The notes: generated by a model from the letters alone, not told the origin. A stretch of DNA of 38,923 nucleotides from an uncultured Candidatus Sumerlaeota bacterium (GCA_964389675.1 CAYMEV010000029.1:1-38923); one strand, 5' to 3'. Shown: positions 13,813 through 30,016, numbered from the stretch's first letter. Program-made: numbers and translations.

Positions 13813-14283
13813 ATGAGCAAAAGAGAATTCCATTCAGTCCTGGATCAGCTTATGGGCGATACTAAAGCCTTTGCTGGAGGCTCTCTGGACAGCCCTGTAG
13901 TGCTCTATCGCCACAAAAGATGGCATATGATCGGTATTGGCAACCGGATCGACTTTGAAATGAAAATAAAAAGAGCAATACTTAGCGTTCATTTCATGTC
14001 AAAGGCCCGGGGTGAGAAAATGGTAGAGGAATGGATGCCTTACAGATATGTAAAGCCGTACAGCGAGGTGATGCCGGAATTTTATAAGGAGGTTGAATCA
14101 AAGGTTCTTCCAACAGCAGACCATTACCGTCCTTTGATTAGAGCAGGGCTGGTCTGCCTTATTGCTGGATACACTACAGATACACTTCACAGAATGGAAA
14201 TGGAAAGTGTGGACAGGATGATTTCCTGCTTAAGTATTATAATGGATAAGTGCCCGATCGGGCCTTATCTGCGTTTTAAATAG
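13813..14283 (+). CDS. Hypothetical protein (156 aa)
   Basis: Clean ORF filling the gap behind a promoter-like sequence; no motif recognised. Confidence 0.7.
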   Translation: MSKREFHSVLDQLMGDTKAFAGGSLDSPVVLYRHKRWHMIGIGNRIDFEMKIKRAILSVHFMSKARGEKMVEEWMPYRYVKPYSEVMPEFYKEVESKVLPTADHYRPLIRAGLVCLIAGYTTDTLHRMEMESVDRMISCLSIIMDKCPIGPYLRFK

Positions 14284-14550
14284 AAGCCAAAGGCCTTTAA
14301 AAATAATAAGTAATTGCTGGTAATGCTTTTATTAAGATCACTTTTCCAGGGTTAAGGGAGCGGAATCATTATCCAGGCTTTATATGGATGAAACCGCTCC
14401 ATGTGTCTAAAAACAGCACAATTCAAAAATAATATTGATTAATTATTTAAGCTTTTCTTAAAATTGTGCCCAGGCAAATATGGTGCATGAAATTCCTCTA
14501 ATGATGATGATCCTCTTCAGATTCTTCAAAAGTCTTATGTATTGTGCCGG
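14224..14550 (+). repeat. 327-bp direct repeat, copy 1
   Basis: Identical by eye to 18550-18876 (offset 4326). Contains the 3' end of the 13813 ORF, the intergenic spacer and the 3' end of the cupin gene. Confidence 0.97.
14357..14400. terminator. Hairpin between convergent genes, duplicated at 18683-18726
   Basis: Outer stem GGAGCGG/CCGCTCC and inner stem ATCCA/TGGAT. There is no strong U tract. Confidence 0.4.
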
Positions 14551-14665
14551 CAGGGATTAATACGATTCAGTCGTCTGATACCTCCTTTAATACTCCTGGA
14601 ATATGAAGAGACCAGGTTTAAAACAGATCTCATTGTTTTTTTCATATGGTGATCTTATCGGGTTA
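14551..14665. pseudogene. Three abutting decayed fragments of downstream sequences
   Basis: 14551-14584 matches 18958-18991 (cupin; 28/34). 14588-14633 matches 19691-19736 (151 aa gene; 38/46). 14634-14665 matches 20779-20810 (26/32). Counts by manual alignment. Confidence 0.85.
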
Positions 14666-14685: not shown

Positions 14686-16560
14686 TCAGTTTATATAGAA
14701 ATTTATAGTTTTTGATATATTTCTCTCATCATAATTAAAATCAAGCCGTTTTTTGTCCAGTAAAACACTTGATTTATAAAGCATTACTTCCATGCCGTCC
14801 CAGGGTGATAGCTTATTGATATAATATTTCAGAAGGCCGTCTTCGTAAGAATATAATTCTAATTTTAATATATTCCCCGGTACATCAAGCATGACTTCAA
14901 TATCAGATTTATCAGAGTCAGTAAATACATTCACTGTTAATTCATTGCCGTCTGCAATGATAAGCCTGCCGAGATCTCCACTACTTCTTAGATCAATACC
15001 CGGATACCTTGTTAATACATATGAATCATGATAGAGATATATCTCATATTCGTCAGGAATTAACCCCTGGTCTTTATTGATGTAGAATTCCCCTTTCTCA
15101 TCTGTTGTTACCCGTATCAGGGATGCAAACATCTTTCCAAAGTCCAAATAATCTTTTACAAACCGCAGATCACCCTTGGCCTGCAATCCTATTAAAACAC
15201 GGAAATCCCGGTATGATCCGGCATAGCCGAAAATAACTCTTGTATCGGGAACAGGTTTATTGTTTGTATCGACAATATACCCTTGAGCCTCTATACCCTG
15301 CTGAAAATAGATATCTCCAACATATAAAAACTGATCCTCAGTTTTGATTTTCCTGATTATTTTATCATCAAAATAATATCTGTATGACAGAGCAGACTCT
15401 GAACCAGGCTCTTTCAGGATCAAATCAGCATAAAGCCTGTCATTTCTGAGATTATGATCCATTATGCCAATATTCTCTGTAGGATTGGGTCCTGGAATTA
15501 TGAAATAACCGTTGTAATCCGTTTCATACCATTTATCTGAAAAAATATAGTTATTAAATTCATTGTATGCAGAATCTAAAGCTGTATACTCGTAATAATA
15601 GTATATTTCAGCTTTTATCAGTGCAGGAAACCGGATATCCCTGTTTGATACCCTTCCATGGATGCCGAATTGCTCTTCAATATATATATCATGTGCCTCC
15701 TCTGAAACAAATAGATCATATGTCAAGGTTCTCCTCGAAAAGGGATCCCTGACAAGAATACAGAATTCCTCTGAATTTAATTCCTCAGGAACAGAAAATA
15801 AAAACCTGTTTCCGTAAAAGCTTTTTATCTGCATATCTTTCAGATCGCCTGTATCTTGATACAGGCATAACTTTACATGTCCTGCAGTTGGCTGATGGCT
15901 GCTTTTTTCAAATAGAATAGATCCGTATATGCTGTTCTTTTTGACAAGGTAAACGGATTTGAAATCACTAAATAAATATTCTGCTAACCTGTTCTGAGGT
16001 GATATCGTTTCAAAATCATGTTCTGATGAAAATATCATTTCCTTTTCATATATATCAGGGCCGCTTATATTAATCTTATATCGGTACTCAGGATTAATAT
16101 GGTTCAAAGTTACAACTGCAGAGTAATTATGTGTTATCTGACATATCTCGATATATTCCTCCATTCCGGGAATATAGCAGAAAAGTTCAATATGTATGCC
16201 GGGAATCGGGGTACTGATCCAGTCTAATGCAAAAAATTCAATTGATCTATCTGAAAAGGTTATATCTATCTTATCTCCCGGCGACTTTATATTTTTATAA
16301 TAAACACCCTGACCCTGGATTGCAATGAAGATATCATTGATATTCATTTCTGGAATTCTTATATTAGATAATCCTTCAGTGGAATATGTTTCAGGTTCGA
16401 TTATTTCCTGCCATATAATCTGCCATGATTCTTTATATGTATTATAAGAATAGAGGTATAAGTGCAGGTTTTCCTGTGAAGCATATGAATCTGGATTAAT
16501 AATTCCACTGGCTGAAATGATTATTAGAAAAATAAGAAGGTGTTTAAACATAGTTTTCAT
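14686..16560 (-). CDS. Exported protein with carboxypeptidase-regulatory-like beta-sandwich domains (operon copy 1, gene C)
   Basis: Signal peptide. GYIVDTNNKPVPDTRV ... VTTDEKGEFYI ... PDEYEIYLYHDSY and ETDYNGYFII patterns. Paralogue of 21497-23383. Confidence 0.8.
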   Translation of the reverse strand: MKTMFKHLLIFLIIISASGIINPDSYASQENLHLYLYSYNTYKESWQIIWQEIIEPETYSTEGLSNIRIPEMNINDIFIAIQGQGVYYKNIKSPGDKIDITFSDRSIEFFALDWISTPIPGIHIELFCYIPGMEEYIEICQITHNYSAVVTLNHINPEYRYKINISGPDIYEKEMIFSSEHDFETISPQNRLAEYLFSDFKSVYLVKKNSIYGSILFEKSSHQPTAGHVKLCLYQDTGDLKDMQIKSFYGNRFLFSVPEELNSEEFCILVRDPFSRRTLTYDLFVSEEAHDIYIEEQFGIHGRVSNRDIRFPALIKAEIYYYYEYTALDSAYNEFNNYIFSDKWYETDYNGYFIIPGPNPTENIGIMDHNLRNDRLYADLILKEPGSESALSYRYYFDDKIIRKIKTEDQFLYVGDIYFQQGIEAQGYIVDTNNKPVPDTRVIFGYAGSYRDFRVLIGLQAKGDLRFVKDYLDFGKMFASLIRVTTDEKGEFYINKDQGLIPDEYEIYLYHDSYVLTRYPGIDLRSSGDLGRLIIADGNELTVNVFTDSDKSDIEVMLDVPGNILKLELYSYEDGLLKYYINKLSPWDGMEVMLYKSSVLLDKKRLDFNYDERNISKTINFYIN

Positions 16561-16561
16561 A

Positions 16562-17608
16562 TTACTTTACCTCCCTGGTAATATGCAATATATTATCAGA
16601 AACCTTTGAAGAAAGAAATGCCCATTTATAAATCTGGCACATTATATCAGGATATTCTGACTGAAAATGCCTGAGAATTATAAGATTAATATTTTTTTTA
16701 TCATCGTTATTTAAATTAATGTCAGTAGTATAATTTTTTACATAAAGATCATATAATCTTTCAAAATGAGCAGTTCTGGAATTAACAATCAATGATGCAG
16801 GATCATTATACCAAAGATAAAACTGATTATTCTCCAGATATGTTTCTTCAATATATATTAGCATATCGACAGTATCCATGTCCAGTCTCTTCATTTGCTT
16901 TTTGCATGGGCTGGAATCTTGTTCAATCTCTATTGGCATTATGAAGGAGCCAACTGTAATATACCTTTTTTGTCTGGCTTCTCTAAGTATTCTCGTTACC
17001 AGGAACCCATCATAAATTTTTATCCCGTACTGAGGCATTCCTTCTCTGGCATTGTCAAAAATTTCTTCAAATGTGGAATAGTCTGTTTCTATTACTTTAT
17101 CAAGGCTGCTTTTGAGTATTTTTACATTAACATTAGCATCAGATTTATCTCTATAAGCATTGGCTCCGGTTTTAAGAAAATCATCTGAAGATAACCATTG
17201 TTGCCCATTATAAGAAATTATTAAATCATAGGGATTAACCTTATCATCTATTTCAGAGAATATAGGAATATAATTATCCGTAAATAAATCACTCTCAAAG
17301 TTATTAAAATTAATTATCAGCCCTGCTGGAATAGCCTCAACCTGAATGGATTCAAAATAAACTTTGGCATCCTCTTTGAAAAAATGATTAATATTTTCAG
17401 CAATCTTTGCCAGATCTATATCCAGATAATCATATACATCAGAATCAGTTTCCATATGAAGAATCTTCTTAAGCTCCAATCTACAATCAGCAAATGTAGC
17501 AGCAGCAGAATTCTTTGCTGTATCCTTATTTTCAGCTGAAATTAGTGTGCTTTCCTGAAGAGACAAGCTCATTAAACAAAGAAATATTGTTATTTTAATT
17601 ACTTTCAT
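16562..17608 (-). CDS. Exported hypothetical protein (operon copy 1, gene B)
   Basis: The ORF track starts at 17638, but the ATG at 17608 gives a signal peptide (MKVIKITIFLCLMSLSL) and its first codons recur at 25052-25069. Paralogue of 23373-24431. Confidence 0.8.
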   Translation of the reverse strand: MKVIKITIFLCLMSLSLQESTLISAENKDTAKNSAAATFADCRLELKKILHMETDSDVYDYLDIDLAKIAENINHFFKEDAKVYFESIQVEAIPAGLIINFNNFESDLFTDNYIPIFSEIDDKVNPYDLIISYNGQQWLSSDDFLKTGANAYRDKSDANVNVKILKSSLDKVIETDYSTFEEIFDNAREGMPQYGIKIYDGFLVTRILREARQKRYITVGSFIMPIEIEQDSSPCKKQMKRLDMDTVDMLIYIEETYLENNQFYLWYNDPASLIVNSRTAHFERLYDLYVKNYTTDINLNNDDKKNINLIILRHFQSEYPDIMCQIYKWAFLSSKVSDNILHITREVK

Positions 17609-17627
17609 TTCTTTAGGGTTCCAATTA

Positions 17628-18098
17628 TTATCTATCATCTTGTTGATAGCAACAGGGGCCTATAACCCGAGGATAGTATAAAACACACATAATACTAACA
17701 ATAGGTCCGGTTGGCTGTAGTATTTCTAGATGATAATCACAGCTTTCACAAGAACTGCCGGGGTCTGCAGGAACACACACTTGGCCCCATTGACAAACTC
17801 CGGGATCATTTGAATGTATAGAAACCCTGGTATAAAGGCAATTACCGACAACATGAAAGTATGGGCAAGAATCAATAGTAGGACAAGTGCCATCATAGAT
17901 CCTACCCTTTATCCGATTCTCTGAATGCTCTTCATAGATTGATGAAGAATAGATATCATCGGTATTATCTCTAGATTCTTCAATTATGTCTATGTCATCA
18001 ATACCAGAGTCTTTTGTTTCCTTTGAATAATTATCTGCTAAAAATAATAGTAGTATTAGCATTGTAGTTAAGCAGCATATTCGAATTAACTTTATCAT
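17628..18098 (-). CDS. Small exported cysteine-rich protein (operon copy 1, gene A)
   Basis: Signal peptide, acidic linker and a C-terminal domain with 10 Cys including CESC and a terminal CC; AAGGAG RBS. Confidence 0.85.
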   Translation of the reverse strand: MIKLIRICCLTTMLILLLFLADNYSKETKDSGIDDIDIIEESRDNTDDIYSSSIYEEHSENRIKGRIYDGTCPTIDSCPYFHVVGNCLYTRVSIHSNDPGVCQWGQVCVPADPGSSCESCDYHLEILQPTGPIVSIMCVLYYPRVIGPCCYQQDDR

Positions 18099-18137
18099 TT
18101 ACTAAACTCCTTTTACTTAATTTTTACTCTGTTTTTA

Positions 18138-18168
18138 ACTATACCCCCCCCCCACGATATAATGTCAA
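18138..18168 (-). promoter_or_regulatory. Sigma70-type promoter with a G10 tract in the spacer (copy 1)
   Basis: Minus strand reads TTGACA-TTATATCGT-GGGGGGGGGG-TATAGT; spacer 19 bp; about 40 bp upstream of the gene A ATG. Confidence 0.88.
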
Positions 18169-18381
18169 GTATTTATTACAAATTTTTACAGCTATTTGAA
18201 ATATTGTATTATTCAGCCTAAAAATCTCTAATAGTGAAGGCAGTTGCAAACAAAATTATAGGGCATCTACATACCAATAAAACAGGAAATTTTATATATC
18301 CATATTATTAAACCAGGCATAGTGCTATCCATACAGACTTTCTGGAACCTTCTTTACTGGCATCGATTATTTTTGCATATA

Positions 18382-18537
18382 CTGTAACAGGACTGAATCT
18401 TGGCTCACCTGTATCTATTAGCAGGTTATATGGAAAGTTCGATTTCAGCTAACAGGCCTCTATGCTGTGGGTTGCCGGAGGATTTGGGATTACGCCGTTT
18501 TTATCCAGGGCACGATCTCTGAGAAATGGAAAATGAA
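18382..18537 (+). pseudogene. Decayed internal fragment of the ferric-reductase-like gene
   Basis: Aligns by eye to about 27183-27338 (SISR.YGKFD.S..MLWVAGG.GITPFLSR.RSLRN), with TAA at 18450-18452. Confidence 0.88.
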
Positions 18538-18549
18538 GGCAAAATAGTA

Positions 18550-18876
18550 TCCTGCTTAAGTATTATAATGGATAAGTGCCCGATCGGGCCTTATCTGCGT
18601 TTTAAATAGAAGCCAAAGGCCTTTAAAAATAATAAGTAATTGCTGGTAATGCTTTTATTAAGATCACTTTTCCAGGGTTAAGGGAGCGGAATCATTATCC
18701 AGGCTTTATATGGATGAAACCGCTCCATGTGTCTAAAAACAGCACAATTCAAAAATAATATTGATTAATTATTTAAGCTTTTCTTAAAATTGTGCCCAGG
18801 CAAATATGGTGCATGAAATTCCTCTAATGATGATGATCCTCTTCAGATTCTTCAAAAGTCTTATGTATTGTGCCGG
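18550..18876 (+). repeat. 327-bp direct repeat, copy 2
   Basis: Identical by eye to 14224-14550. Confidence 0.97.
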
Positions 18877-19324
18877 ATTCATGTTCCGGAGGGCCATAAA
18901 GCACATAGACCTTCAGGGGATTATCCCCTGTGTTTATAATGTTATGCCATGTGCCTGCAGGGATTAAGACAGCCCAGTCATCTGATACCTCTTTATCAAA
19001 GGTAAGATTATCTTCCGAATTCCCCATGAGTATGCGCCCTTTGCCGCTTTCAATCCGTATGAACTGGTCATTATGGCCATGAACCTCAAGGCCGATCTCT
19101 CCTTTTGGTGGGATAGCCATAACCGTGAGCTGGAGTGTCTTCCCTGTCCATTTGGCTGTCCTGAAATTTTCATTCTCCAGGGTAAGTTCCTCTATATCAA
19201 CAGCCCAGGGTTTTTCACCGTAATCCTCAGAATCAAATTCATCCTTTTCTGATCCGTTAACAGCCGGCAGGGCAATCAAAAGTACAAGTGCCATAGCCCC
19301 GAATAGGAATAATGCTTTCTTCAC
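18824..19324 (-). CDS. Cupin domain protein with a signal peptide
   Basis: GEIGLEVHGHNDQFIRIESG and LIPAGTWHNIINTG cupin motifs; GTG start with AGGAGG RBS. Confidence 0.9.
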   Translation of the reverse strand: MKKALFLFGAMALVLLIALPAVNGSEKDEFDSEDYGEKPWAVDIEELTLENENFRTAKWTGKTLQLTVMAIPPKGEIGLEVHGHNDQFIRIESGKGRILMGNSEDNLTFDKEVSDDWAVLIPAGTWHNIINTGDNPLKVYVLYGPPEHESGTIHKTFEESEEDHHH

Positions 19325-19617
19325 AATGATCCTCCTTTTTGTTTTTTTAATATTCTATATTAAGGGCTGAAATGTTTAAAGTTTATTTATTAATGGAGAC
19401 CTGTCTTCAGATATTTTCTAAATTCATTGTCAGTATTGGTGACATTTGCAGGCTGATCAGGCAAAATATATTAAAACAATTATATATAGAACGACGAAGC
19501 TTAATTAATGCAGTAAGCTGTCTAAATTGCTAAAACTGTTTTAGGCTGATTTTTATATTACTGCTCATTAAATTTATGATATTATAAAAATACCTATTAA
19601 TGTAATGGAGGATATCT

Positions 19618-20073
19618 ATGAAGAACCTTGCTGTTATTATATGCATTGCCATACTATTCAGCATTTGTGTCCAGGCATCGGAATCCCAGGTAATACTTCT
19701 GGCTTATGAAAAGACCAGGTTTAAGACAGGCCTGATGGAAGAAATGAAAAAGAACCTTGAGAATGAAGGATTTACAGTGGAGATCCTTGAACACAGCAAG
19801 GGCGGTCTGGACAATATCGATACAGACCGCTATGCAGCTATTTTCATTACAAATTCCGGTGTAAACTCCAAAGTGCGCCCCTGGGTAAGCAAATGGATAT
19901 CTGAATCAGGTGCAAAGGATAAGATCCTGCTTCATACCACTCAGAGAAGTGACTGGAAGGTTGAAACAGATGTTGATGCAGTGACATCAGCTTCTGAAAG
20001 GAAAAATATATCTGCTTTTGCCCGGGAATATACTGAAAGGATCAAGGCCCTGATTTCTCAAAATAATGATTAA
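19618..20073 (+). CDS. Exported hypothetical protein, possibly flavodoxin-like alpha/beta fold
   Basis: Signal peptide, GGAGG RBS, ILLAYEKTRFK ... VDAVTSAS pattern. Confidence 0.7.
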   Translation: MKNLAVIICIAILFSICVQASESQVILLAYEKTRFKTGLMEEMKKNLENEGFTVEILEHSKGGLDNIDTDRYAAIFITNSGVNSKVRPWVSKWISESGAKDKILLHTTQRSDWKVETDVDAVTSASERKNISAFAREYTERIKALISQNND

Positions 20074-20179
20074 ATCTGCCCTGCTGATAATTTTATGGGG
20101 AATTTTAGTTTGCTGCGGCTATAACTGCTGGAAACACGGTCATTTTTGCTGACGTTATATGTCAAAAAAGGAGGAGCAT

Positions 20180-20740
20180 ATGAAACGGTTACTTATTCTG
20201 GCAGGCATCGCATGCCTGTTCGCGTCCCTGCTTTCAGCCGGTGATGAAGCTATTACTGAAAAGAAGATGGAATCCTTTGCTTTTGCCTGCATGCACAGTG
20301 AAGGTTCGTATGATCAAATGAACAAAGCTATTGAGGGCTTCATCCAGGAATTTTTCAGGCATGGCCTCATACCTGACGGCCCCCTCATGGGCATTTACTA
20401 CAATTCTCCGGACATGGTCAAGCCGGAAGAGTTAAAGTGGGCTGTTGGCTTTCCCGTTGCTGACGGTGCAAATGTAAAAGAGCCCCTCAAGCTGGATAAT
20501 TTCAGTCACGACATGGTTCTCTGCCATCTTTACAAGGGTCCGTACGAGGGAATGGGCAAGGCCTACGAGGCAATTGAAGTTTACATGAAGGAGAATAACT
20601 ACATCTGGGACGGCCCGGCTTACGAGCGATGGCTGGACAATCCCCAGGAGGTTAGCCCCGAAAACCTTCGCACGGAAATAATTGTACCTGTAAAGAAGTG
20701 TACGGATGAAACGGCAAAGCCTGTGAAACCCGGGAAATAG
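20180..20740 (+). CDS. GyrI-like small-molecule-binding domain protein with a signal peptide
   Basis: HSEGSYDQM, GIYYNSPDMVKPEELKW, YKGPYEGMGKAY and PENLRTEIIVPV. The ATG at 20180 follows GGAGGAG; the ORF track starts at 20159. Confidence 0.88.
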   Translation: MKRLLILAGIACLFASLLSAGDEAITEKKMESFAFACMHSEGSYDQMNKAIEGFIQEFFRHGLIPDGPLMGIYYNSPDMVKPEELKWAVGFPVADGANVKEPLKLDNFSHDMVLCHLYKGPYEGMGKAYEAIEVYMKENNYIWDGPAYERWLDNPQEVSPENLRTEIIVPVKKCTDETAKPVKPGK

Positions 20741-20976
20741 ACCTGACAGGCTGGAAATACTGGGGTTCCAGAGCCTCCTGTTCTTTTTATATGGTGGTTT
20801 TATCTGGTAACGAATATTACGCCAGAACAGATATTATCTTCTTATAAGGAGATATTAGGAATGACCCGTTGAGAGCAGTATCAGCTGGACATTGCCGAGC
20901 CTGATATCAGATGAGGGGAGATATATCCTGGATAACCGCAGGGAAGAAGATTCTGAAAGTTTACTGTTTATAAGCA

Positions 20977-21445
20977 TTAGGGAATAAAGGCTATTATTTT
21001 CATATCAGAGCCGCAGACCGGACATTTCAGCGGATCTATCTCATATACTTTATATATCAGCATTGCCCATGACCTTCGGGCTGACCTTATATCCGGGGGA
21101 TCATTAATTATTTTTATGTCCCTCTTTTTCCTTTTGCCTCTTGAAGCATTGGAATAGTACCTATAATATCTAATAAGGTATTCATAGGGGTCGGGAATAT
21201 GCAGATATACCCTGTGGAGGAATTCAATAGCATCCAGTATCTCAAAATTCCTGTTTTTGCCAGGATGCATCTTTGATCTGTATATGATATTATGGGATTT
21301 CTCTGAGAAGGTTATCTTCTCTGAGGAAAAAGAAGCATGCACTATGTACTCTGCAAGCCTGGATAGGGCATTTGGATTATCCTCTGATATCAATATTGCA
21401 TTATGGACTGAGAAGCCGTCTTTTTGTATATGGCCAACCTCTCAT
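20977..21445 (-). mobile_element. Truncated IS91/ISCR-like rolling-circle transposase (C-terminal half)
   Basis: GFSVHN, LSRLAEYIVHASFS, LDAIEFLHRVYLHIP, IRYYRYYSNASRGKR and SWAMLIYKVYEIDPLKCPVCGSDMKIIAFI. The N-terminal Zn-binding and HUH region is missing. Confidence 0.85.
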
Positions 21446-21496
21446 CTTATTAATAAGTATAGAACTAAATGAATTCAGAATGAAATTTATTAAAAA

Positions 21497-23383
21497 TTAA
21501 AGGATAATCTCTAATATCCTTTCAACATTTTTTTCATCTGGTTCAAAACCTAATTTAATCTGATGTAAAAGTATTCCTTCTTTATATATAGCTACTATAT
21601 AGGATTTATAAGACACAAGTCTTTCTATATAATATGTCAAAACACCATTTTTATCCGAAACAAGGTCTAGATATGTATTAAATCCAAGACATTCTATTTT
21701 TACTTCAATACTTTCCTTATCTGAATCAGTTATAAGATTAAGTATGATTTTATTTCCATGGTTTATTTCCAGATCCCCTAAGTCTGTGTCTTTCTTTATG
21801 CTGATATCAGGATAATAGGTCAAGGTGTACCTATCATGATATATATAAAGATCATAATTACCTTGATAGATTCCAGCATTTTTATTTATACTGAAAAAAC
21901 CTTTATCATCTGTTACAGAATTGCCGCGCGATAATTTACTTAGATCTTTTAAATATTCTGAGTAAGAATCAGGGTATTCTGCAGGTGCAATCAGGCAGCC
22001 AGTATACAGACCATAATTGGACCGGAGGCTAATATAAACAGCAGCACCTGACACTGGATCATTATCTTTATCTTTGATATATCCACAGATATAAGCACCT
22101 TCCCTGAAATAGATATCACCCAATTTCAGGATCATGGGAGCTTTTCTGTATCTTTCTATCATCTTGTCATCTAAATATTTTCTGTAAATCAATTTAGCTG
22201 CAGTTTCATCCTGTTCACAATATAGAAATAAATCTATAAAAAGCTCTTCTTCACTCATAAAACCCGGATTATAATATGGATATCTTGAAATAATATCTCC
22301 AATGTAAGTTATAGGTATATGAAAATTACCGATATTATCTGTATAAATTTCATCAATATTGTCCGATGTACTACCTGCGCATACTAATTCATCATTGGTA
22401 GTATTTATATAGGAATAGCTCATATAGGCTCTAACCTGAACCGGGAAATTTATATATTCATTAGAAACCTTTCCAATAATAGCCATTTCTTCATCAAAAA
22501 ACAACTCATAAGGCTCCCGGGATACAGATACATCAAATAATAGCGTATCATTAGTCAGCTTATTTCTGCCCGCGATACACAATTGTCTTGAGGCATATTC
22601 TTCATCTATGATAAATAGAAACCTATTGTGAATATAAGGTTTGATCGGCTCTACCAATATCAATTCACCTTCAGAATCATAATAAAAGATCCCCATTAGC
22701 CCCCCCCCACACTTAATGCCCGAATTTTTGTACCAAGTGGAACCATATATGCTGTTTTTTCTAATAAGGTAGACAGGATTATCAAATATTACGATTCCTT
22801 CCTCATCAAGCATAAGTTCTTCTTTAAAATCCTTATCTGATGAGAAAAATATCTCCTTTGTATATATATCATCACCTGTTATTGTCGCCTTATACTGATA
22901 TAACGGGTTTACAATGCTGAGCTTAACTTCAGAATATTCAGCTTGTGTTATCTGATATAGATCAATATAATCAGACATCTCGGGTATAAATACTGAAACA
23001 TTTATTTTTGCATTATTAATTCCTTCACATACCCAGTCTAGTGTGTGGAAGCTTATTGGGTCACCGGAAAAATTGATAGTTAGGTCCCCTGCTGTTTTAT
23101 CAATATTTTGATAATATACTGCCTGACCCTGCACTGCAATAAGTATGCCTCCCTCAAAAGCTAGCAGATCATAGCAGGGCAATTTACCCTCTTTGTAATC
23201 CATGGGATTTAAGATTTCAGACCATATAATCTCCCATTTATTGTCCTGACTGTTAAAACAATAAACATATAGATGAAGGTCAGCCGACGAATCTGAAAAT
23301 GATCTATCAAGGTAAAATATGGCTTTTAATACAGGTGAAAATAAAAATAGAACAACAATAAATAATATTAGCTTACTTTTCAT
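21497..23383 (-). CDS. Exported protein with carboxypeptidase-regulatory-like beta-sandwich domains (operon copy 2, gene C)
   Basis: Signal peptide; GYIKDKDNDPVSGAAV ... VTDDKGFFSI. Shares LHLY, IA.QGQ.VYY.NI, KNSIYGS, NRFLF and GDIYF blocks with 14686-16560. Confidence 0.8.
   Translation of the reverse strand: MKSKLILFIVVLFLFSPVLKAIFYLDRSFSDSSADLHLYVYCFNSQDNKWEIIWSEILNPMDYKEGKLPCYDLLAFEGGILIAVQGQAVYYQNIDKTAGDLTINFSGDPISFHTLDWVCEGINNAKINVSVFIPEMSDYIDLYQITQAEYSEVKLSIVNPLYQYKATITGDDIYTKEIFFSSDKDFKEELMLDEEGIVIFDNPVYLIRKNSIYGSTWYKNSGIKCGGGLMGIFYYDSEGELILVEPIKPYIHNRFLFIIDEEYASRQLCIAGRNKLTNDTLLFDVSVSREPYELFFDEEMAIIGKVSNEYINFPVQVRAYMSYSYINTTNDELVCAGSTSDNIDEIYTDNIGNFHIPITYIGDIISRYPYYNPGFMSEEELFIDLFLYCEQDETAAKLIYRKYLDDKMIERYRKAPMILKLGDIYFREGAYICGYIKDKDNDPVSGAAVYISLRSNYGLYTGCLIAPAEYPDSYSEYLKDLSKLSRGNSVTDDKGFFSINKNAGIYQGNYDLYIYHDRYTLTYYPDISIKKDTDLGDLEINHGNKIILNLITDSDKESIEVKIECLGFNTYLDLVSDKNGVLTYYIERLVSYKSYIVAIYKEGILLHQIKLGFEPDEKNVERILEIIL
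22700..22708 (-). repeat. G9 homopolymer inside gene C of copy 2 (Gly-Gly-Gly)
   Basis: C9 on the plus strand; reads TGT GGG GGG GGG CTA on the minus strand; currently in frame. Confidence 0.9.
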
Positions 23384-24431
23384 TTTCTATAATTTTCTTT
23401 TTTATCAATAATATACTTTCAGACAGAAGCCTGTCACGCAAATATGACCAATGCATAATCTTGCAGAAAATTTCTGCATATTCCTGTTCATCATGCGCAA
23501 ATATGTTATTATGGCACTCGAAATGATCAATTGCTTTTATATTATTATTTTTAATATAATTTATCATGTATTCATATTGAACTGAATCATAATATGCAGC
23601 TTTAGCCATAATATTTAGCAATGTGGGCTCAACTACATGAAAATATAACTCATCATTTTGCTTATATGTATCCTCTATAAAAGATTTCAATTCAGCTGAT
23701 TCAGAATTGAGATGAATAATGCTGCTGCATGTTTTGCATTCTGCATCCTTATTAATCTTTATTGGTCTGAAGAAGGTTCCAGGTTCGAGGAATTTGTTTT
23801 CTTCAATCTCCTTTATTTTCGATGTTATGAGGAATCCTCCCTGAATATGTATTCCATAATACAGATCCTTATCAATATTAGAACCACCTGTTTTCATATC
23901 ATCAGAGACAGTGAATTCTGTTTCTTCTATTTTATCAAGGTTGCTTTTCAGAATCTTTACCGGAACAACACTATCTTGATCCTGTATATATGCTTCAACT
24001 CCAGTTTTTGCAAAATCATCAGCTGATATCCATGATTTTCCGTTGTATTTTAACACCATATCAAAGGGATTTACATTTTTAAATCTTTCCCAGACCACTG
24101 GATCCATAGTATTAAAAGCCACCTCACTATGCCGTGGTATGTATCCTTCGAGAAGGCCTACAGGTACACACTCCAACTGCAATGACTCTATAATTATCTT
24201 GTCATATTCATTTAGAAGGCTTGTGATTTTATCAGATATTTCCTTTTTGCTTAAATTCAAATAGTCATAGGCATTAAACTTGCCATTCTTTATATCATTC
24301 ATAACAGGGCTAAATTTATTTTTAAATTTTTCTATAATTATTTCGCTTTCAGAGGGGCATATAACCTCCCCGACTATAAAAAAGGTATATACAATAGATA
24401 TGAGACAACCTATTAAAATTCGCTTTTTCAT
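23373..24431 (-). CDS. Exported hypothetical protein (operon copy 2, gene B)
   Basis: Hydrophobic N-terminus. Shares YDYL, ES.Q.E..P.GL, VNP.D....YNG..W.S.DDF.KTG..AY, VKILKS.LDK and YGI.I..GFL.T with copy 1 gene B. Confidence 0.8.
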   Translation of the reverse strand: MKKRILIGCLISIVYTFFIVGEVICPSESEIIIEKFKNKFSPVMNDIKNGKFNAYDYLNLSKKEISDKITSLLNEYDKIIIESLQLECVPVGLLEGYIPRHSEVAFNTMDPVVWERFKNVNPFDMVLKYNGKSWISADDFAKTGVEAYIQDQDSVVPVKILKSNLDKIEETEFTVSDDMKTGGSNIDKDLYYGIHIQGGFLITSKIKEIEENKFLEPGTFFRPIKINKDAECKTCSSIIHLNSESAELKSFIEDTYKQNDELYFHVVEPTLLNIMAKAAYYDSVQYEYMINYIKNNNIKAIDHFECHNNIFAHDEQEYAEIFCKIMHWSYLRDRLLSESILLIKKKIIENEK

Positions 24432-24587
24432 AATATGTTCACTATCTCCTATACTTTATAAATGATTATTATTGTATTATTAGGACATTGCCTGAAATTT
24501 TTAGTTCATTTTTAATATTATATATTTTTAAGAATTATAGAAAACATATACAATAGAACCTTGAGAATCTAATTTTTTCGAGAATTA

Positions 24588-25031
24588 TCAATGTGCATCT
24601 CCATTCCTGCAGCATCTGTATATTCTAGGGTATATTTTGCAATGCTTATTATAACTTCCCACATGCATAGCATATATACAACTCTCACATCCATCTCCTA
24701 TAGTTTCTTCATCACATCTGCGATAATTAGAACTTTCTGGTACGTTATTGCACATTCCAGTTGGAGTTGGCTCTATATATTCAGTTCTGGCATATATACA
24801 TAATGGTTCCACTGTAATATGCATTTTTCTACATTGGTATAAAGCACAATACATATATCCATCCCATTCCCCAGGGAGTGTTTTCTCAATATCAGAGACC
24901 TTTAATTTAACACAAATTGTCCTTTCGTTTGTATCATAATTTGGGTTCTCTCCATAGATGGAAATAACAGCAAATCCTGCAAATAAGATAACCAGAGCTA
25001 GACAACAAAACATTTTTGCAATAGAATTCAT
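24588..25031 (-). CDS. Small exported cysteine-rich protein (operon copy 2, gene A2)
   Basis: Signal peptide; same 10-Cys framework (CIYAR, GMC, CESCIY, YPRI..CC) as 17628-18098; AAGGAGG RBS. Confidence 0.85.
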   Translation of the reverse strand: MNSIAKMFCCLALVILFAGFAVISIYGENPNYDTNERTICVKLKVSDIEKTLPGEWDGYMYCALYQCRKMHITVEPLCIYARTEYIEPTPTGMCNNVPESSNYRRCDEETIGDGCESCIYAMHVGSYNKHCKIYPRIYRCCRNGDAH

Positions 25032-25074
25032 TTCTCTTATAACCTCCTTACTATTCTAATTACTTTCATTTTTT

Positions 25075-25554
25075 TTAAGCTGATAATTTTAAGTTATAAT
25101 TTGTTTTATAGCAACAGGGTCCTATAAACTGAGAATACTACAAAATACATATGAGAATAATATGCCCAAATGACTGAAGTATTCCAGATGATAATAACAG
25201 CTTTCACAAGAACTGACTGGATCTCCAGGGACACAGTTTTCGCCGCATTTGCAGACTCCGGGATTATGTGAATTTATAGAACTCCTTGCATATTGGAAAT
25301 CACAAACAACATGAGAGTATGGACAATAATCAAGAGGACAAAGTGCCCTCATAGATTCTACCCTTTATCTGAGTCTCTGAATGCTCTTCATAGATTAATG
25401 AAGAATATATATCATCGATATCATGCTTAGCTTCTTCAATTGTCTCTATGTCATTAATAACAGGTTCTCTTGTTTCATTTGAATAATTATCTGTTAAAAA
25501 TAATAGCTGTATCAGCATTGCAGTTAAGCAGCATGCTCGACTTAACTTTATAAT
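25075..25554 (-). pseudogene. Pseudogenised close homologue of copy-1 Cys-rich gene A
   Basis: Start is ATT instead of ATG (25554). One frameshift lies near 25340 (ORFs 25330-25518 and 25122-25352 are the two halves) and a second lies before IGPCCY. Collinear with 17628-18098. Confidence 0.9.
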
Positions 25555-25593
25555 TTATTAAACTCCTTTTGCTTAATTTTTACTCTGTTTTTA

Positions 25594-25624
25594 ACTATAC
25601 CCCCCCCCCACGATATAATGTCAA
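25594..25624 (-). promoter_or_regulatory. Sigma70-type promoter with a G10 tract in the spacer (copy 2)
   Basis: Same TTGACA-TTATATCGT-G10-TATAGT as 18138-18168, inside a ~70-bp identical core. Confidence 0.88.
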
Positions 25625-26335
25625 GTATTTATTACAAATTTTTAAAGGTATTTGAAATCTTGTATTATACAGCCTATAAATCTCTATTAGTGAAGACAAT
25701 TACAAACTATATGACATCTAATAGCTATGGAACAGGCATATAAACAAGGCATAACGCTCTTGATACATACTGCCGGGAACCTTCTTTTTTATATGGCGGC
25801 TACATATAAACTGTCTTATAACAGACGGGATCTTTGATGAGATAATAATTTCCCCCATAAACATAATAGACACTGGAAAAGCAGTAATAATATTCAGGGA
25901 AAGATCATTTGCAATGTTTTAGAGAGAAATGCACGTAAAACGCTTTTAATAATACCTAGCATCAGTGATACACTCATTCATAAGATGAGAGACTGGCAAT
26001 ATATGCTATTACTGATTCTCATTCTATAATTCCATGAGGGTATCAAAGGGTAATCCCAAATCCTTATTAAGATTCTATGGTCTTTTACGGATAAATATAT
26101 TTTAGGGAGAATATAATATCATAAAAGTAGAGATGCTCCTTTTTTTCTGACTTAAAACAGGGTAAAAATACTGTATTTTAATTTCAGAAAAAATATATAG
26201 ACTCATCAGAAATTATCTCCTAAAATTTTTAAGATTTCAATGATGTATGCAGAATATAGCCAGGATTTGAATATTCTGGCAAAGTTTTTTGATATTTGAA
26301 CTAAAGGGGAAAATTGATTTTTCAATCAGTAAATA

Positions 26336-27649
26336 ATGATTAAATATTTCCTTTTAATACTATTACTGGTTATAACACCTCTTGCAATACTTCTGCAGGT
26401 ATATTTCAGCGGCAACTGGTATTCATTTTTCCACAGCTATTCCCTCGGTATTGTCTTCGGCCTTTTGGCATGGGCGCTATTTCTGTTCACGCTTGTTTTG
26501 TCTTCAAGGGTCAGGCTTCTGGAAAAGATATTCGGTCAGGACAGGCTCATCGTTTTGCACAGATATACTGGAGCCGGTGCTGTTATATCAGGTATACTGC
26601 ATGTGTCATTCAAGCTGTACTTTTCATCAGATGTATCGCCTCACCTGATAAGCGGTGCTATAGCGGGATCTATTATTTTTCCAGTTTCTGCCATGTCTCT
26701 TCTAATCCTATCCCGATCGGTCTTTGACCGTTTCAGGGCAGTAAAAATGGTAAAGAGCTATGCACGCAGGTCAATACGCTATTCCACCATGAAGTTCCTT
26801 CATAATGGTATTGCATTAGCCCTTGCCATTATACTTATACATATTCTAATAGCACCTTCTACAGCGGAGACCAGCCTCCGTTCTGTTATTATAATGCTGA
26901 CAGGCATACCTGTCCTGGGGCTATGGATTTACCATAAGCTGATAAGGCCCTATTTTTATATTAAAGGGAGAATAAAGGAGATACATCATTTCACTGACAG
27001 GCTTTTTTCAGTAAAGATGGAATTTCTTAAGAGTGTTTTAAGTATCATGCCCGGTCAGTTCTGCTATTTCAGGTTCCCAGTCCCTGGTGTCCCAGGGGAG
27101 GAACACCCTCTCACCATATCAGGGGTATTTGACCACCAGACTGCAGAAGTACTTATAAAGAGGGAAGGTTTGTGGACAAATTCTGTATCGGGCCTGGAAC
27201 CTGGCTTGCCTGTGTCCATCAGCAGGCCTTATGGAAAGTTTGATCTCAGCTCCCAGTGCCCTATGCTCTGGGTTGCCGGAGGAGTCGGAATTACGCCGTT
27301 TCTATCCAGGATACGCTCTCTGCGGAACGAAAAGCTGAAACTGAATGTCAGAACTGTCCTGATATGGAGTGCGAGGACTGGCAGAGAAATGCCCTATAGA
27401 GATGAAATAGAGGATTATGAAAACATGGACGGCAATTTTACATTTATTCCCATGCTTACCCGTGAAAAGACTGCTTCACCAAGAATAGATTCTGATTTTA
27501 TTAAAAGAAAGATAAATGAATTATCTCATAAAAATGCTTCCCTATGGTATTGTGGTCCTCTTTTGCTGCGCAGGCATGTTTTCAGGGGTGCTAAGGAAGC
27601 AGGGATAAAAGCAGGGAATATGCACTGGGAAGAGTTCTCCCTGGCCTGA
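26336..27649 (+). CDS. Ferric reductase-like transmembrane oxidoreductase with FAD/NAD-binding domains
   Basis: Six TM helices with paired His (LHRYTG/LHVSF, LHNG/IHIL), plus PGQF, EEHPLTIS, VAGGVGITPF, WYCGP and HWEEF. Confidence 0.92.
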   Translation: MIKYFLLILLLVITPLAILLQVYFSGNWYSFFHSYSLGIVFGLLAWALFLFTLVLSSRVRLLEKIFGQDRLIVLHRYTGAGAVISGILHVSFKLYFSSDVSPHLISGAIAGSIIFPVSAMSLLILSRSVFDRFRAVKMVKSYARRSIRYSTMKFLHNGIALALAIILIHILIAPSTAETSLRSVIIMLTGIPVLGLWIYHKLIRPYFYIKGRIKEIHHFTDRLFSVKMEFLKSVLSIMPGQFCYFRFPVPGVPGEEHPLTISGVFDHQTAEVLIKREGLWTNSVSGLEPGLPVSISRPYGKFDLSSQCPMLWVAGGVGITPFLSRIRSLRNEKLKLNVRTVLIWSARTGREMPYRDEIEDYENMDGNFTFIPMLTREKTASPRIDSDFIKRKINELSHKNASLWYCGPLLLRRHVFRGAKEAGIKAGNMHWEEFSLA

Positions 27650-27745: not shown

Positions 27746-30016
27746 TTATGATGGCGGGAAAACATAGAAGGAAACACCCTCATAGTCCCACTGAGGCAGT
27801 TCCATTACATCATCCCTTTCATTTTCATTGATTGTATAGAAATGGCCCCCTCTGACATTGTTGAAGAATCTGTAAACAGCCACACTGGAAGTGGCCTGTG
27901 ACGGCATAACATAAAAGGATATGCCCTCGTAGTTCCATTGAGGCAGCTGCATTATTGCATCTCTTTCAGATGTATTAATGGTATACAGATGGATGCCTGT
28001 TCTTGTATTGAAGAAACGGTATGCTGCAGTGCTTCCCTGGGCTTGAGTATTATAGACCCTGAATGCCACACCCTCATAGCTCCACTGGGGCAGGTCCATT
28101 ACATCATCCCTCTCAGATTCACTGATAGTATACAGGTGGCCTCCGCGGTTTGTGTTGAAGAAGCGGTAAACAGGCACTGTTTCTTCCTGAGGTTCGCTTA
28201 CTTCCTTATGTGCGACAATAGACGGATCACCAAGATAGTTCAGTGAAAAATGAACCCATCTCATGGAATAATCTGAGTTTGCAGATCCTGCAAGATGGAT
28301 CTTTGACTGGGTAAAACCAGCTCCTATTAGATGCTGGTAGGTATTCTCAAGGGTATATCTGAATATCCAGTCATTATAAGTGAATGAAGGCCCGTGCCCT
28401 GAGAGGGAAATTTCACCAAGGCCGTACCTTGATGCTCCGATATATACAACACTGCCCCCGTTTGGATTTCTTGTGAATGCCTCGCCCAGGCATGGGTCGG
28501 CTGCACCCGCAACTTCAGGGTCAAATGCATTTGTTATGCAGGCAATGGTAATTACAATACCCGGAATATTATTGAGTGCAAGTGCGCTGTTTGAAGAAAA
28601 GTCAGCACCTGTCTCCATTGCCCAGACAGTTACATTGCCGTGGGTTGCCATATGAAAGAAGTTCATACCCTGATTCAGGATACTTGACAGTGTGGAGACT
28701 GAAACAGTGGCATCTGTATCATAGAGTGTGTGTTTGTTATGGTCAGCCCAGTATGGAGCTATGTAATTATTGTACATGGCTTCGCTCTTGGCCTTGGCAT
28801 CCCCGCTGTAGTAAAAGAGCTGAACGCCTGAAAGCAGGAGATTCTTTGGAAAGCTCTGGTTGCTTCCTGCATTGATGTAAGTATTTACCTTGTTCTTGTA
28901 GTCAAGGACCTGCTGAGCGGTCCTTACTGCAAGCCTTCCGATTATTACATCCGGTGATATATCTGCATTGTCGCCACTTATTTCTCCCACTTTGCTGTCA
29001 CCGTCTGCATTCCAGTTGAATGCACCGTCAAAACAGCTGTAGAACAGGTCTCCTGGAATAGTGTTGTCAGTTTCCTTATATGGGAGATATCCGTAGACAT
29101 TCTGGTCAGGTACACTGTATGTACTGCTGGTTCCACCATCACCGATAAGGAAGACATAGCTGATATTATTGTTCTGGACATACTGATAGATGCAGTTCTT
29201 GATCTTCAGCTGATCTGTTGCACCTTCATATGTGCTTAAAATATTGGAGACAGTCTGTATTGTTGATGTAATGCCTGCTGATTGCCTGAAATTTGCATAA
29301 GTCTGTGCAGCAGACTGTAATGTGTCTGTTGTTATTATAAGCATATCATAATCTGCTGATTTTGGTGCAACATCTACTTTGTCAGGGTAGAAAAGGCTGA
29401 AATAGGAAGGGTTAACAACAGTTCCAAGGATAATATTATTAAAAACTGCATTTGGCCTGTAGTCGATCCTTTCGTTGTCCTTACTGTATTCGCATTTTAC
29501 AGAAAAACTGACATTCTGGTACATGAAAAGCTCATTTGTTTCAGTATTATATTCAAACGGGTAGTAGGAAAAATATAGAATATCAAATCCCCTTGTACTG
29601 CCTACAGAAAGATTAACAAGTCTTTTATCCGGATATACAGATCCGCTTTTATATGTCCTGCCAGGAGGAATGAAGTCATTCCTCGGCTTTGAGATTATCT
29701 CATATCCCTGAAACGGGTAGGGTGTTACTTCCCCGAGAGATACCCTGCTGCTTTCCTTGAAAATGATGTCAGTTATCTCTGCCTGCCTTGGAACAAGGAC
29801 TCTGACCATATAAGCAGGTATATCAGGGTCTCCTTCCTTAGCCAGGGAATGTGCATCCGGATCCTGGTATGAAATCCTGTAATATCCTTCAAAAGGTTCA
29901 ATAACAACCTTGTCAATATCATATTCAAGGTCGAATGTTATCACCTCTCCAAAGCATGCTATGCTCAGGAAGGCAAAAATTACGGCAAAAAAAATTGGTT
30001 TCATAATTATTTTCAT
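27746..30016 (-). CDS. Gingipain-like C25 cysteine peptidase with propeptide and three C-terminal DUF5648-type repeats
   Basis: Signal peptide, GDPDIP propeptide, DMLIIT, YVFLIGD, DVIIGRL, catalytic THG and IAC, NYLGDP. Ends with 3x (V/A)YRFFN...G.H.YTI...ERD..M.LPQW.YEG. Confidence 0.9.
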   Translation of the reverse strand: MKIIMKPIFFAVIFAFLSIACFGEVITFDLEYDIDKVVIEPFEGYYRISYQDPDAHSLAKEGDPDIPAYMVRVLVPRQAEITDIIFKESSRVSLGEVTPYPFQGYEIISKPRNDFIPPGRTYKSGSVYPDKRLVNLSVGSTRGFDILYFSYYPFEYNTETNELFMYQNVSFSVKCEYSKDNERIDYRPNAVFNNIILGTVVNPSYFSLFYPDKVDVAPKSADYDMLIITTDTLQSAAQTYANFRQSAGITSTIQTVSNILSTYEGATDQLKIKNCIYQYVQNNNISYVFLIGDGGTSSTYSVPDQNVYGYLPYKETDNTIPGDLFYSCFDGAFNWNADGDSKVGEISGDNADISPDVIIGRLAVRTAQQVLDYKNKVNTYINAGSNQSFPKNLLLSGVQLFYYSGDAKAKSEAMYNNYIAPYWADHNKHTLYDTDATVSVSTLSSILNQGMNFFHMATHGNVTVWAMETGADFSSNSALALNNIPGIVITIACITNAFDPEVAGAADPCLGEAFTRNPNGGSVVYIGASRYGLGEISLSGHGPSFTYNDWIFRYTLENTYQHLIGAGFTQSKIHLAGSANSDYSMRWVHFSLNYLGDPSIVAHKEVSEPQEETVPVYRFFNTNRGGHLYTISESERDDVMDLPQWSYEGVAFRVYNTQAQGSTAAYRFFNTRTGIHLYTINTSERDAIMQLPQWNYEGISFYVMPSQATSSVAVYRFFNNVRGGHFYTINENERDDVMELPQWDYEGVSFYVFPPS

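Follow-up and report, generated by a model that had tools for sequence, protein, structure and literature searches.

Here, we have analysed a stretch of 38,923 nucleotides (nt) from an uncultured Candidatus Sumerlaeota bacterium (contig C29 of its genome, G000; hereafter the window, with coordinates counted along the whole stretch) and found that it carries two copies of a three-gene operon, A-B-C, on the minus strand. Protein A is small and rich in cysteine, protein B is modelled with a PDZ fold, and protein C is predicted to be an array of beta-sandwich domains. It is very probable that the three genes form a real, conserved module of exported proteins and, as far as their sequences tell, the proteins belong to no described family. 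The explanation that we favour takes the operons as a lineage-restricted family of contingency loci, each specifying a polymorphic and phase-variable module made of three envelope proteins. Taken as a whole, we put this explanation at a little under an even chance.

The duplicated gene order that an earlier, sequence-only reading had described was confirmed by calling open reading frames (ORFs). Copy 1 (18098-14686) consists of A1 (17628-18098, 156 amino acids, aa), B1 (16562-17638, 358 aa) and C1 (14686-16560, 624 aa), and copy 2 (25031-21497) of A2 (24588-25031, 147 aa, divergent within the A family), B2 (23373-24431, 352 aa) and C2 (21497-23383, 628 aa). As that reading had also noted, B and C lie in close contact, with a gap of 1 nt between B1 and C1 and an overlap of 11 nt between B2 and C2, and the operons are AT-richer than their surroundings (GC content 0.31-0.36, against 0.40-0.45 in the flanks). 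In BLASTP comparisons, B1 and B2 are 32% identical (E 2e-53) and C1 and C2 are 35% identical (E 1e-107), and no significant similarity is found between A1 and A2 (E 0.054). The signal peptides that had been claimed for all of the proteins stand in part: a hydrophobic N-terminus can be read on all six window proteins, and an N-terminal helix is present in the structure models of B1 and C1, which would be consistent with export by Sec.

Further operons of the same kind were found elsewhere. A third operon of the same genome is split across the starts of contigs C22 and C38 and comprises A3 (225 aa), two fragments of B3 and C3 (608 aa), which brings the paralogous copies of this genome to at least three. 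The only other genome in the same phylum-level group, G001, carries two operons, on its contigs C73 and C154. Four metagenome contigs hold additional instances: L019 has a complete and distinct operon (A of 204 aa, B of 348 aa and C of 605 aa), L020 holds B-C, and L018 and L021 repeat sequences of G001. The order A, B, C is kept in all six operons that have their 5' part on a contig. Initial scans for related loci, with C1 in genome contigs and with the B alignment in metagenome contigs, were empty, and these loci came from second scans.

The family appears to be confined to this lineage. A HMMER profile of six B proteins matched 8 of 1,835,955,588 representative proteins at E <= 0.001, all of them B-like and several of them fragments. 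Word-indexed protein searches found three B, four C and three A proteins, and all of the A matches came from the window's own genome. B1 was matched in 2 of 61 genomes, and the C profile in 2 of 401 genomes and, in a search limited to the phylum-level group, in both of its genomes. That A and B lack a described family, as had been proposed from the sequence, holds across the libraries consulted: for A, B or C, no match above threshold was obtained in Pfam, NCBIfam, PADLOC or PHROGs, and sequence-profile searches of the PDB returned no match for A or B and one chance-level match for C. Among publications judged by their title or the start of their abstract, there was no relevant work on an operon combining a PDZ protein, a cysteine-rich protein and phase variation. 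The phylum-level group comprises only two genomes, both of one genus, and its gene families are nearly unexplored. The A, B and C proteins of G000 and G001 share 27-48% identity in their best cross-species matches, as compared with 68% and 80% for two flanking housekeeping proteins. This excess divergence would reflect either very fast evolution or paralogous types that are long-lived.

In A1, the hydrophobic N-terminus is followed by an acidic linker, and the C-terminal domain, about 85 aa long, has ten cysteines, including a CESC motif and a terminal CC. In the family, the linker is variable and often acidic, the cysteine domain is again about 85 aa long, and seven cysteines, two tyrosines and one glycine are invariant in an alignment of six A proteins. 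The description of A as a 10-Cys protein is correct for A1, and the other members have 8-11 cysteines. No family match was found for A1 in Pfam, NCBIfam or PDB sequences, and a protein atlas gave nothing for the A domain. The earlier label of A as disulfide-rich is doubtful, because DsbA, DsbB, VKOR and Thioredoxin_4 were not found by profile in the genome, which is 94% complete (3.57 Mb); the cysteines of A could either form disulfides or bind metal. Predictions of a complex between B1 (residues 40-358) and A1 (residues 60-156), run with no controls, scored 0.15, 0.54 and 0.05 in three runs against a mark of 0.32, and thus speak neither for nor against binding. The host is a diderm, as the presence of Omp85 shows, and although the four profiles are unmatched in it, it encodes several exported cysteine-rich proteins. 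One protein with a signal peptide and a cysteine-dense C-terminus, of 220 aa, is encoded on contig C19 (59995-60657, minus strand); its cysteine pattern is unlike that of A, and its gene adjoins a copy of the insertion sequence (IS) family that flanks copy 2.

By structure modelling, B is a PDZ-fold protein, which the sequence-only reading had not recognised. The AlphaFold2 model of B1, made from a six-sequence alignment (pLDDT 74, pTM 0.77), has an N-terminal hydrophobic helix, a helical region, a PDZ fold at about residues 100-210 and a C-terminal helical bundle. In VIA comparisons, the PDZ region superimposes on the PDZ domain of Aquifex S2P with Z 9.6 and a root-mean-square deviation (rmsd) of 2.1 over 82 aa, and on SpoIVB with Z 9.3, and dozens of further PDZ entries, among them RseP, HtrA, Ctp and GRASP, were returned by VIA and Foldseek; the Foldseek matches to the PDZ domains of GRASP, RseP, SpoIVB and HtrA all have E above 0.001. 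The protein atlas gave PDZ-like matches for B below its threshold (0.86), a weak hint from a language model. No Pfam PDZ family was found at E up to 1 for B1 or B2. The first strand of the PDZ fold carries a conserved P-A/V-G-L/I motif (PAGLI or PVGLL) with an invariant glycine, and this motif may be the carboxylate-binding loop. The helical parts on either side of the PDZ fold have no convincing structural match.

It is with the PDZ proteins of the cell envelope (the RseP/S2P tandem, SpoIVB, HtrA/DegP and Ctp) that B can best be compared. Residues of about 100-210 superimpose on these with Z 9.6-8.0 and rmsd 2.1-3.0 over 81-92 residues, and the phi-G-phi motif is shared. Unlike those proteases, B has no protease or other catalytic domain that Pfam or NCBIfam would detect and no Pfam PDZ match, it is confined to one lineage, and the structural matches to PDZ proteases span their PDZ part only.

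Protein C is the longest and best conserved of the three components, and the claim that it is rich in beta-sandwich was upheld by modelling. The AlphaFold2 model of C1 (pLDDT 71, pTM 0.52) shows a hydrophobic N-terminus followed by about six beta-sandwich domains. By VIA, residues 421-540 are transthyretin-like (Z 9.9 to the transthyretin-like domain of carboxypeptidase D), residues 103-183 resemble the CnaB/SpyCatcher fold (Z 8.4) and residues 194-287 are FN3-like, while the Pfam family CarboxypepD_reg matches C1 below its cut-off. Residues 421-624 superimpose on Mfa2 with Z 8.3 and rmsd 4.7 over 171 aa, which is within the range of generic matches, and on BT2657 with Z 7.4. Whole-chain Foldseek matches are to generic arrays of Ig-like and MG domains, with TM-scores of 0.1-0.16 in the PDB. 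In C2, an in-frame tract of nine G (22700-22708) encodes Gly-Gly-Gly.

In its general design, C resembles stalks built from Ig-like, CnaB and transthyretin domains (RrgB, SpaA, GBS52, Mfa2 and TIE proteins); its model has about six such domains, with single-domain Z of 8-10. Each of the known types differs in some respect. Reading of the C1 and C2 sequences reveals no LPXTG-type motif at the C-terminus, no lipobox cysteine (the N-termini are free of cysteine) and no CxEQ thioester motif. Sortase-assembled pilins and CnaB adhesins differ by the first of these, and the host of C has Omp85; the type V pilins (Mfa/Fim) differ by the second. Alpha-2-macroglobulin MG arrays, which Foldseek ranks first for C together with Ig-like arrays (TM 0.10-0.14), differ by the third and by their length of about 1500 aa, compared with 624 aa for C1.

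The suggestion of phase variation comes from simple repeats at the control points of the operons. Promoter 1 (18138-18168, minus strand) consists of TTGACA (18168-18163), 9 nt, a run of ten G (G10, 18153-18144) and TATAGT (18143-18138), with a spacer of 19 bp, and promoter 2 (25594-25624, minus strand) is identical, with its G10 at 25609-25600. The core shared by the two copies is about 74 nt long and includes TTGACA-TTATATCGT-G10-TATAGT. The claim of an identical promoter core thus stands for the DNA itself, but promoter 2 precedes a decayed A1-like pseudogene and not A2 directly. In copy 1, GGAG and the start of A1 come 33-35 nt after TATAGT. As the spacer is 19 bp with G10, it would be 17 bp with G8. 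A scan for the promoter consensus that accepts spacers of 16-18 bp does not report the 19-bp promoter. DNA of the G10 promoter was not found in G001, where contig C154 begins 12 nt before its A gene.

A second and unrelated form of repeat is found at the start codon of A, again beyond what the sequence-only reading had seen. The third operon has a tract-free promoter, TTGACA-16-TAGAAT, and the repeat (ATGCAAAC)x4 at the start of A3; L019 has (ATGCAATC)x6 at its A start, and the operon on contig C73 of G001 has six degenerate 8-nt units there. Both the sequence and the copy number of the octamer vary among operons (four and six perfect units, six degenerate ones). Since the unit is 8 nt long and contains an ATG, an in-frame start would be offered by every third unit. 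Wherever the 5' region of an operon can be seen, in five cases of five, there is a repeat, either in the promoter spacer (G10, two operons) or at the start codon (octamer, three operons).

Both arrangements have counterparts. According to PMC7864442, tp0126 and porA are under the control of a poly-G tract that separates the -35 and -10 elements, with an optimum of 17 bp, and tprL is switched by G8 versus G10 in a reporter. In this account, porA of Neisseria meningitidis and tp0126 and tpr of Treponema pallidum are like the window operons in having a G tract between the -35 and -10 hexamers, spacing around a 17-bp optimum and envelope genes downstream. The present case differs from porA and tp0126 in that the host is an uncultured sediment organism and not a host-adapted pathogen, one promoter is duplicated in front of two diverged operons, and the system is known from sequence alone. 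In the opa genes of Neisseria, CTCTT repeats in the region of the leader peptide bring about translational phase variation. The octamer operons are alike in that the coding sequence for an exported protein opens with a non-triplet repeat, whose copy number differs between related loci; they differ in that the 8-nt unit has its own ATG and all three examples are in the same phase. We know of no described case with the 8-nt unit found at the A start, although no search was aimed at it.

We regard repeat-driven switching of the A-B-C operons as somewhat better than an even proposition. What became of the claim of phase variation is thus mixed: simple repeats do sit at the control points, and the argument for switching is one from their position. 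Several observations weigh against the favoured explanation. Tract lengths were compared on assembled contigs, and these show no variation in repeat length; the assembly has G10 in both window copies, and a contig from a second sample (run X2) spans the tract of copy 2 as G10. In all three octamer operons the ATG adjacent to the ribosome-binding site is out of frame by an equal amount, and one more unit would restore the frame. ON and OFF frames were not both found among these operons, which make a very small sample, and their identical phase could equally mean a fixed arrangement with a leader ORF, and not random switching. The octamer tract of G001 is degenerate, and the promoter consensus of the host lineage may differ from the TTGACA and TATAGT hexamers used here. 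With regard to the proteins, an exported cysteine-rich A is hard to place in a genome where the four Dsb-type and related profiles were not found, and no sorting signal was recognised in C; the surface location of the module is something we infer. Part of the family also seems to be decaying, because B3 is interrupted at a multi-copy repeat and the A gene that follows promoter 2 is dead.

The strongest alternative is that there is no switch. The proteins would be real and lineage-specific, the G10 and octamer repeats would be inherited without high-frequency change in length, and the operons would be a fast-evolving, partly decaying cargo of IS-rich regions. The tract found three times as G10, the common frame of the octamer operons with the degenerate repeat of G001, the A pseudogene and the IS-interrupted B3 would all be expected of such cargo. 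It would leave to coincidence that repeats of two unrelated forms fall precisely on the promoter spacer or the start codon in every visible 5' region, five of five, that octamer units differ in sequence and copy number between operons, and that the G tract lies between perfect -35 and -10 hexamers 19 bp apart. Contigs of the deepest run (X1) end at both G tracts, which is a weak hint of switching at most. We consider this alternative unlikely.

Comparison of the two window copies suggests how the operons may have diverged. Their flanks are 78-97% identical, as compared with 32-35% for the B and C proteins. Copy 1 is bracketed by a direct repeat of 308-354 nt that is 97% identical, with its left arm at 14197-14550 and its right arm at 18523-18876; the left arm contains a duplicated 3' end of a cupin gene. 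Downstream of C1 there are fragments of the cupin gene and of a 151-aa ORF, and both genes are intact downstream of copy 2. Upstream of promoter 1 (18294-18532; blastn, repeat D7) there is a fragment of an IS end (18294-18364), which is multi-copy and is found upstream of both window promoters, followed by a ferric-reductase-like fragment (18376-18532, 157 nt) that is 78% identical to 27177-27333; the ferric-reductase-like gene is intact upstream of copy 2. In copy 2, the A1-like pseudogene (25099-25554, minus strand; repeats D2-D4) has its ATG start changed to ATT and several frameshifts. Its DNA is 90% identical to A1 in the promoter and 5' half, then 79%, then 71% at the 3' end, after which there is no identity.

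Similar flanks around diverged genes, together with this decayed pseudogene, argue for cassette replacement. The simplest reading of the DNA is that a unit of flank, promoter, A-B-C and flank was duplicated in tandem and that divergent cassettes were later exchanged into the space between the conserved flanks. Cassette exchange is in our judgement likely, and the allele swapping proposed earlier fits the near-identical promoter and flanks that surround genes of such low identity. Overall, the data are compatible with, and in part support, an exported module that is polymorphic, carries repeat elements and undergoes cassette exchange. The PDZ fold, the octamer repeat at the start codon, the pseudogene, and the IS remnants and long direct repeats that bracket the cassettes are additions to what had been read from the window at first.

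Remnants of mobile elements lie on both sides of copy 2. Downstream of C2 there is an IS91-family remnant (20977-21466, minus strand; Pfam Y2_Tnp, E 3.5e-9), which is multi-copy, has raised contig depth and has blastn matches on contigs C19, C40, C2, C46, C8, C3 and C34 of the genome. A second remnant of the same IS family lies upstream of promoter 2 (25739-26331) in inverted orientation, and the inverted repeat I1 pairs 21363-21466 with 25964-26067. An invertible segment of 4.4 kb, suggested by opposite-strand joints 21462/25838 and 21296/26180, was considered and rejected, because the sides of the joints are multi-copy IS pieces that are adjacent elsewhere (contig C19, 58867-59930) and the joints do not match I1. 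In the third operon, contig C22 ends in a multi-copy sequence that recurs at, or close to, the ends of several other contigs, and about 110 codons of B are not accounted for, so that B3 is probably interrupted by a repeat or an IS element. The break has the look of an IS insertion at which the assembly was broken as well. Its two edges (contig C22, 1-58; contig C38, 1-53) lie at multi-copy sequence seen at or near the ends of contigs C39, C53, C37 and C34.

To describe how the favoured contingency operons could work, we propose the following. A, B and C would all be exported by Sec. C would serve as a stalk or display scaffold and A as a variable head or ligand, and B would tether or assemble the two through its PDZ groove, binding a peptide tail or strand. 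Slipped-strand mispairing would switch each copy on its own. In the two copies of the window, the spacing between -35 and -10 would be set by the G tract, such that G10 (19 bp) is predicted to be weak or OFF and G8 (17 bp) optimal; in the octamer operons, the number of 8-nt units would set the frame between the ATG adjacent to the ribosome-binding site and A. New variants would arise by cassette replacement between conserved flanks. In kind, we infer a family of contingency loci, in which the role of A as ligand or toxin and its binding to B are likewise presumed. A role in surface display or adhesion is possible, with the balance tilting against it. A more specific version is somewhat unlikely: that the module is an undescribed appendage or delivery device of the envelope, in which a cysteine scaffold is the head, a PDZ protein the adaptor and a chain of Ig domains the stalk, and which exists in several antigenic versions with two switch mechanisms and renewal by cassette, presumably driven by phages or predators.

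Two other functions of the module were considered, each of which we judge quite unlikely. The first is antagonism, in which A would be a toxin or bacteriocin, secreted and rich in cysteine, B would be anchored in the membrane and hold A by its tail as an immunity protein or chaperone, and C would be a part for delivery or receptor binding, with the paralogues as toxin-immunity types. The small size of A, its export and its hypervariability around a cysteine scaffold that stays fixed would suit a toxin, as would the multiple diverged cassettes with signs of replacement, the orphan A pseudogene, and the mobile-element remnants that bracket the loci. However, no domain for toxicity, immunity or dedicated export was detected by profile libraries in any of the three proteins, though novel toxins would escape such a search; all three proteins diverge together, and not A with one partner alone; and C, the longest component, is also the best conserved, which is unusual for a toxin-immunity pair. 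A phase-variable immunity gene would moreover be costly when OFF.

The second is a module for substrate capture linked to the neighbouring C25 or C10+DUF5648 peptidases, in which A-B-C would be a scaffold that binds particles or polymers, or a set of substrates matured by the peptidases. Secreted DUF5648 cysteine peptidases are found within about 3 kb of three A-B-C operons. A Peptidase_C25+DUF5648 gene (27746-30016, minus strand) lies 2.1 kb from promoter 2, a paralogous one lies about 3 kb from C3 on contig C38 (L022, 2934-5204), and on L021 (1989-3551) a Peptidase_C10+DUF5648 gene, whose product has an I69 inhibitor propeptide, runs convergently to the C gene. This adjacency looks more frequent than expected by chance, because the 3.57 Mb of the genome hold about 16 DUF5648 genes (22 matching stretches) and two of its three operons have one within about 3 kb. 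Gingipains mature type V pilins in Bacteroidota, and the two C-terminal domains of C resemble the pilin and adhesin units Mfa2 and BT2657 with the Z-scores given above. On the other hand, the peptidases lie outside the operons and on other strands, copy 1, L018 and L019 have no adjacent peptidase, the two cases in G000 may be one duplicated block, and C is without the lipoprotein cysteine of type V pilins.

That the operon derives from a phage and is a chromosomal module for receptor binding or for a tail fibre is very improbable: the C model does match many phage Ig-array proteins in the viral structure library BFVD (E down to 1e-15) and A1 has a weak PHROG match (phrog_32502, E 1.5e-4), but the BFVD TM-scores of 0.1-0.18 indicate generic Ig-array similarity, B, C, A2, B2 and C2 have no PHROG match, the neighbourhood has no phage structural or replication genes, and all three proteins have hydrophobic, Sec-like N-termini.

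If the favoured contingency operons are real, they would represent a pathogen-style contingency system in a free-living sediment bacterium. To our knowledge, contingency loci that depend on repeats have been described almost exclusively in host-adapted pathogens. The sequencing runs that contain the window are labelled as marine sediment or sediment metagenomes, and none of those listed is recorded as RNA. The sequence logic of such loci recurs here in a lineage of uncultured marine-sediment bacteria, where it takes two forms that differ in mechanism and precedes genes for three proteins that have no described relatives. Should the switching be real, stochastic variation of the surface would be an ecological strategy outside hosts, most plausibly against phages, and A-B-C would be marked as an exposed and selected structure of these cells. 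The module also poses biochemical questions that can be tested, namely how a cysteine scaffold such as that of A is made without a detectable Dsb system, and what a stand-alone PDZ protein does in an operon with its likely clients.

We would also mention some minor observations on the window and its genome. Between copies 1 and 2 lie unrelated genes, namely the cupin gene, the unassigned 151-aa ORF, a GyrI-like protein and the Y2_Tnp transposase fragment. Comparison of 14197-14633 with 18523-19736 shows the former to be a compacted, partly deleted duplicate of the cupin and 151-aa ORF region, and the second cupin 3' end encodes a His-rich C-terminal tail. The gene at 2457-6602 (minus strand) encodes a STAND-like protein of 1381 aa, with an adenylate/guanylate cyclase domain, an AAA_16 ATPase and many TPR repeats, and is unrelated to the operons. 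The genome as a whole has nine G/C tracts of at least 10 nt, as compared with about 0.6 estimated from base composition, and the organism may have many loci controlled by repeats. Long tracts reach 14 nt; examples are found on contigs C3 (142290-142299 and 142590-142603), C5 (5984-5994) and C18 (33398-33411). The two tracts on contig C3 are 300 nt apart in similar sequence contexts, and the one on contig C5 follows (CT)n(GT)n dinucleotide repeats.

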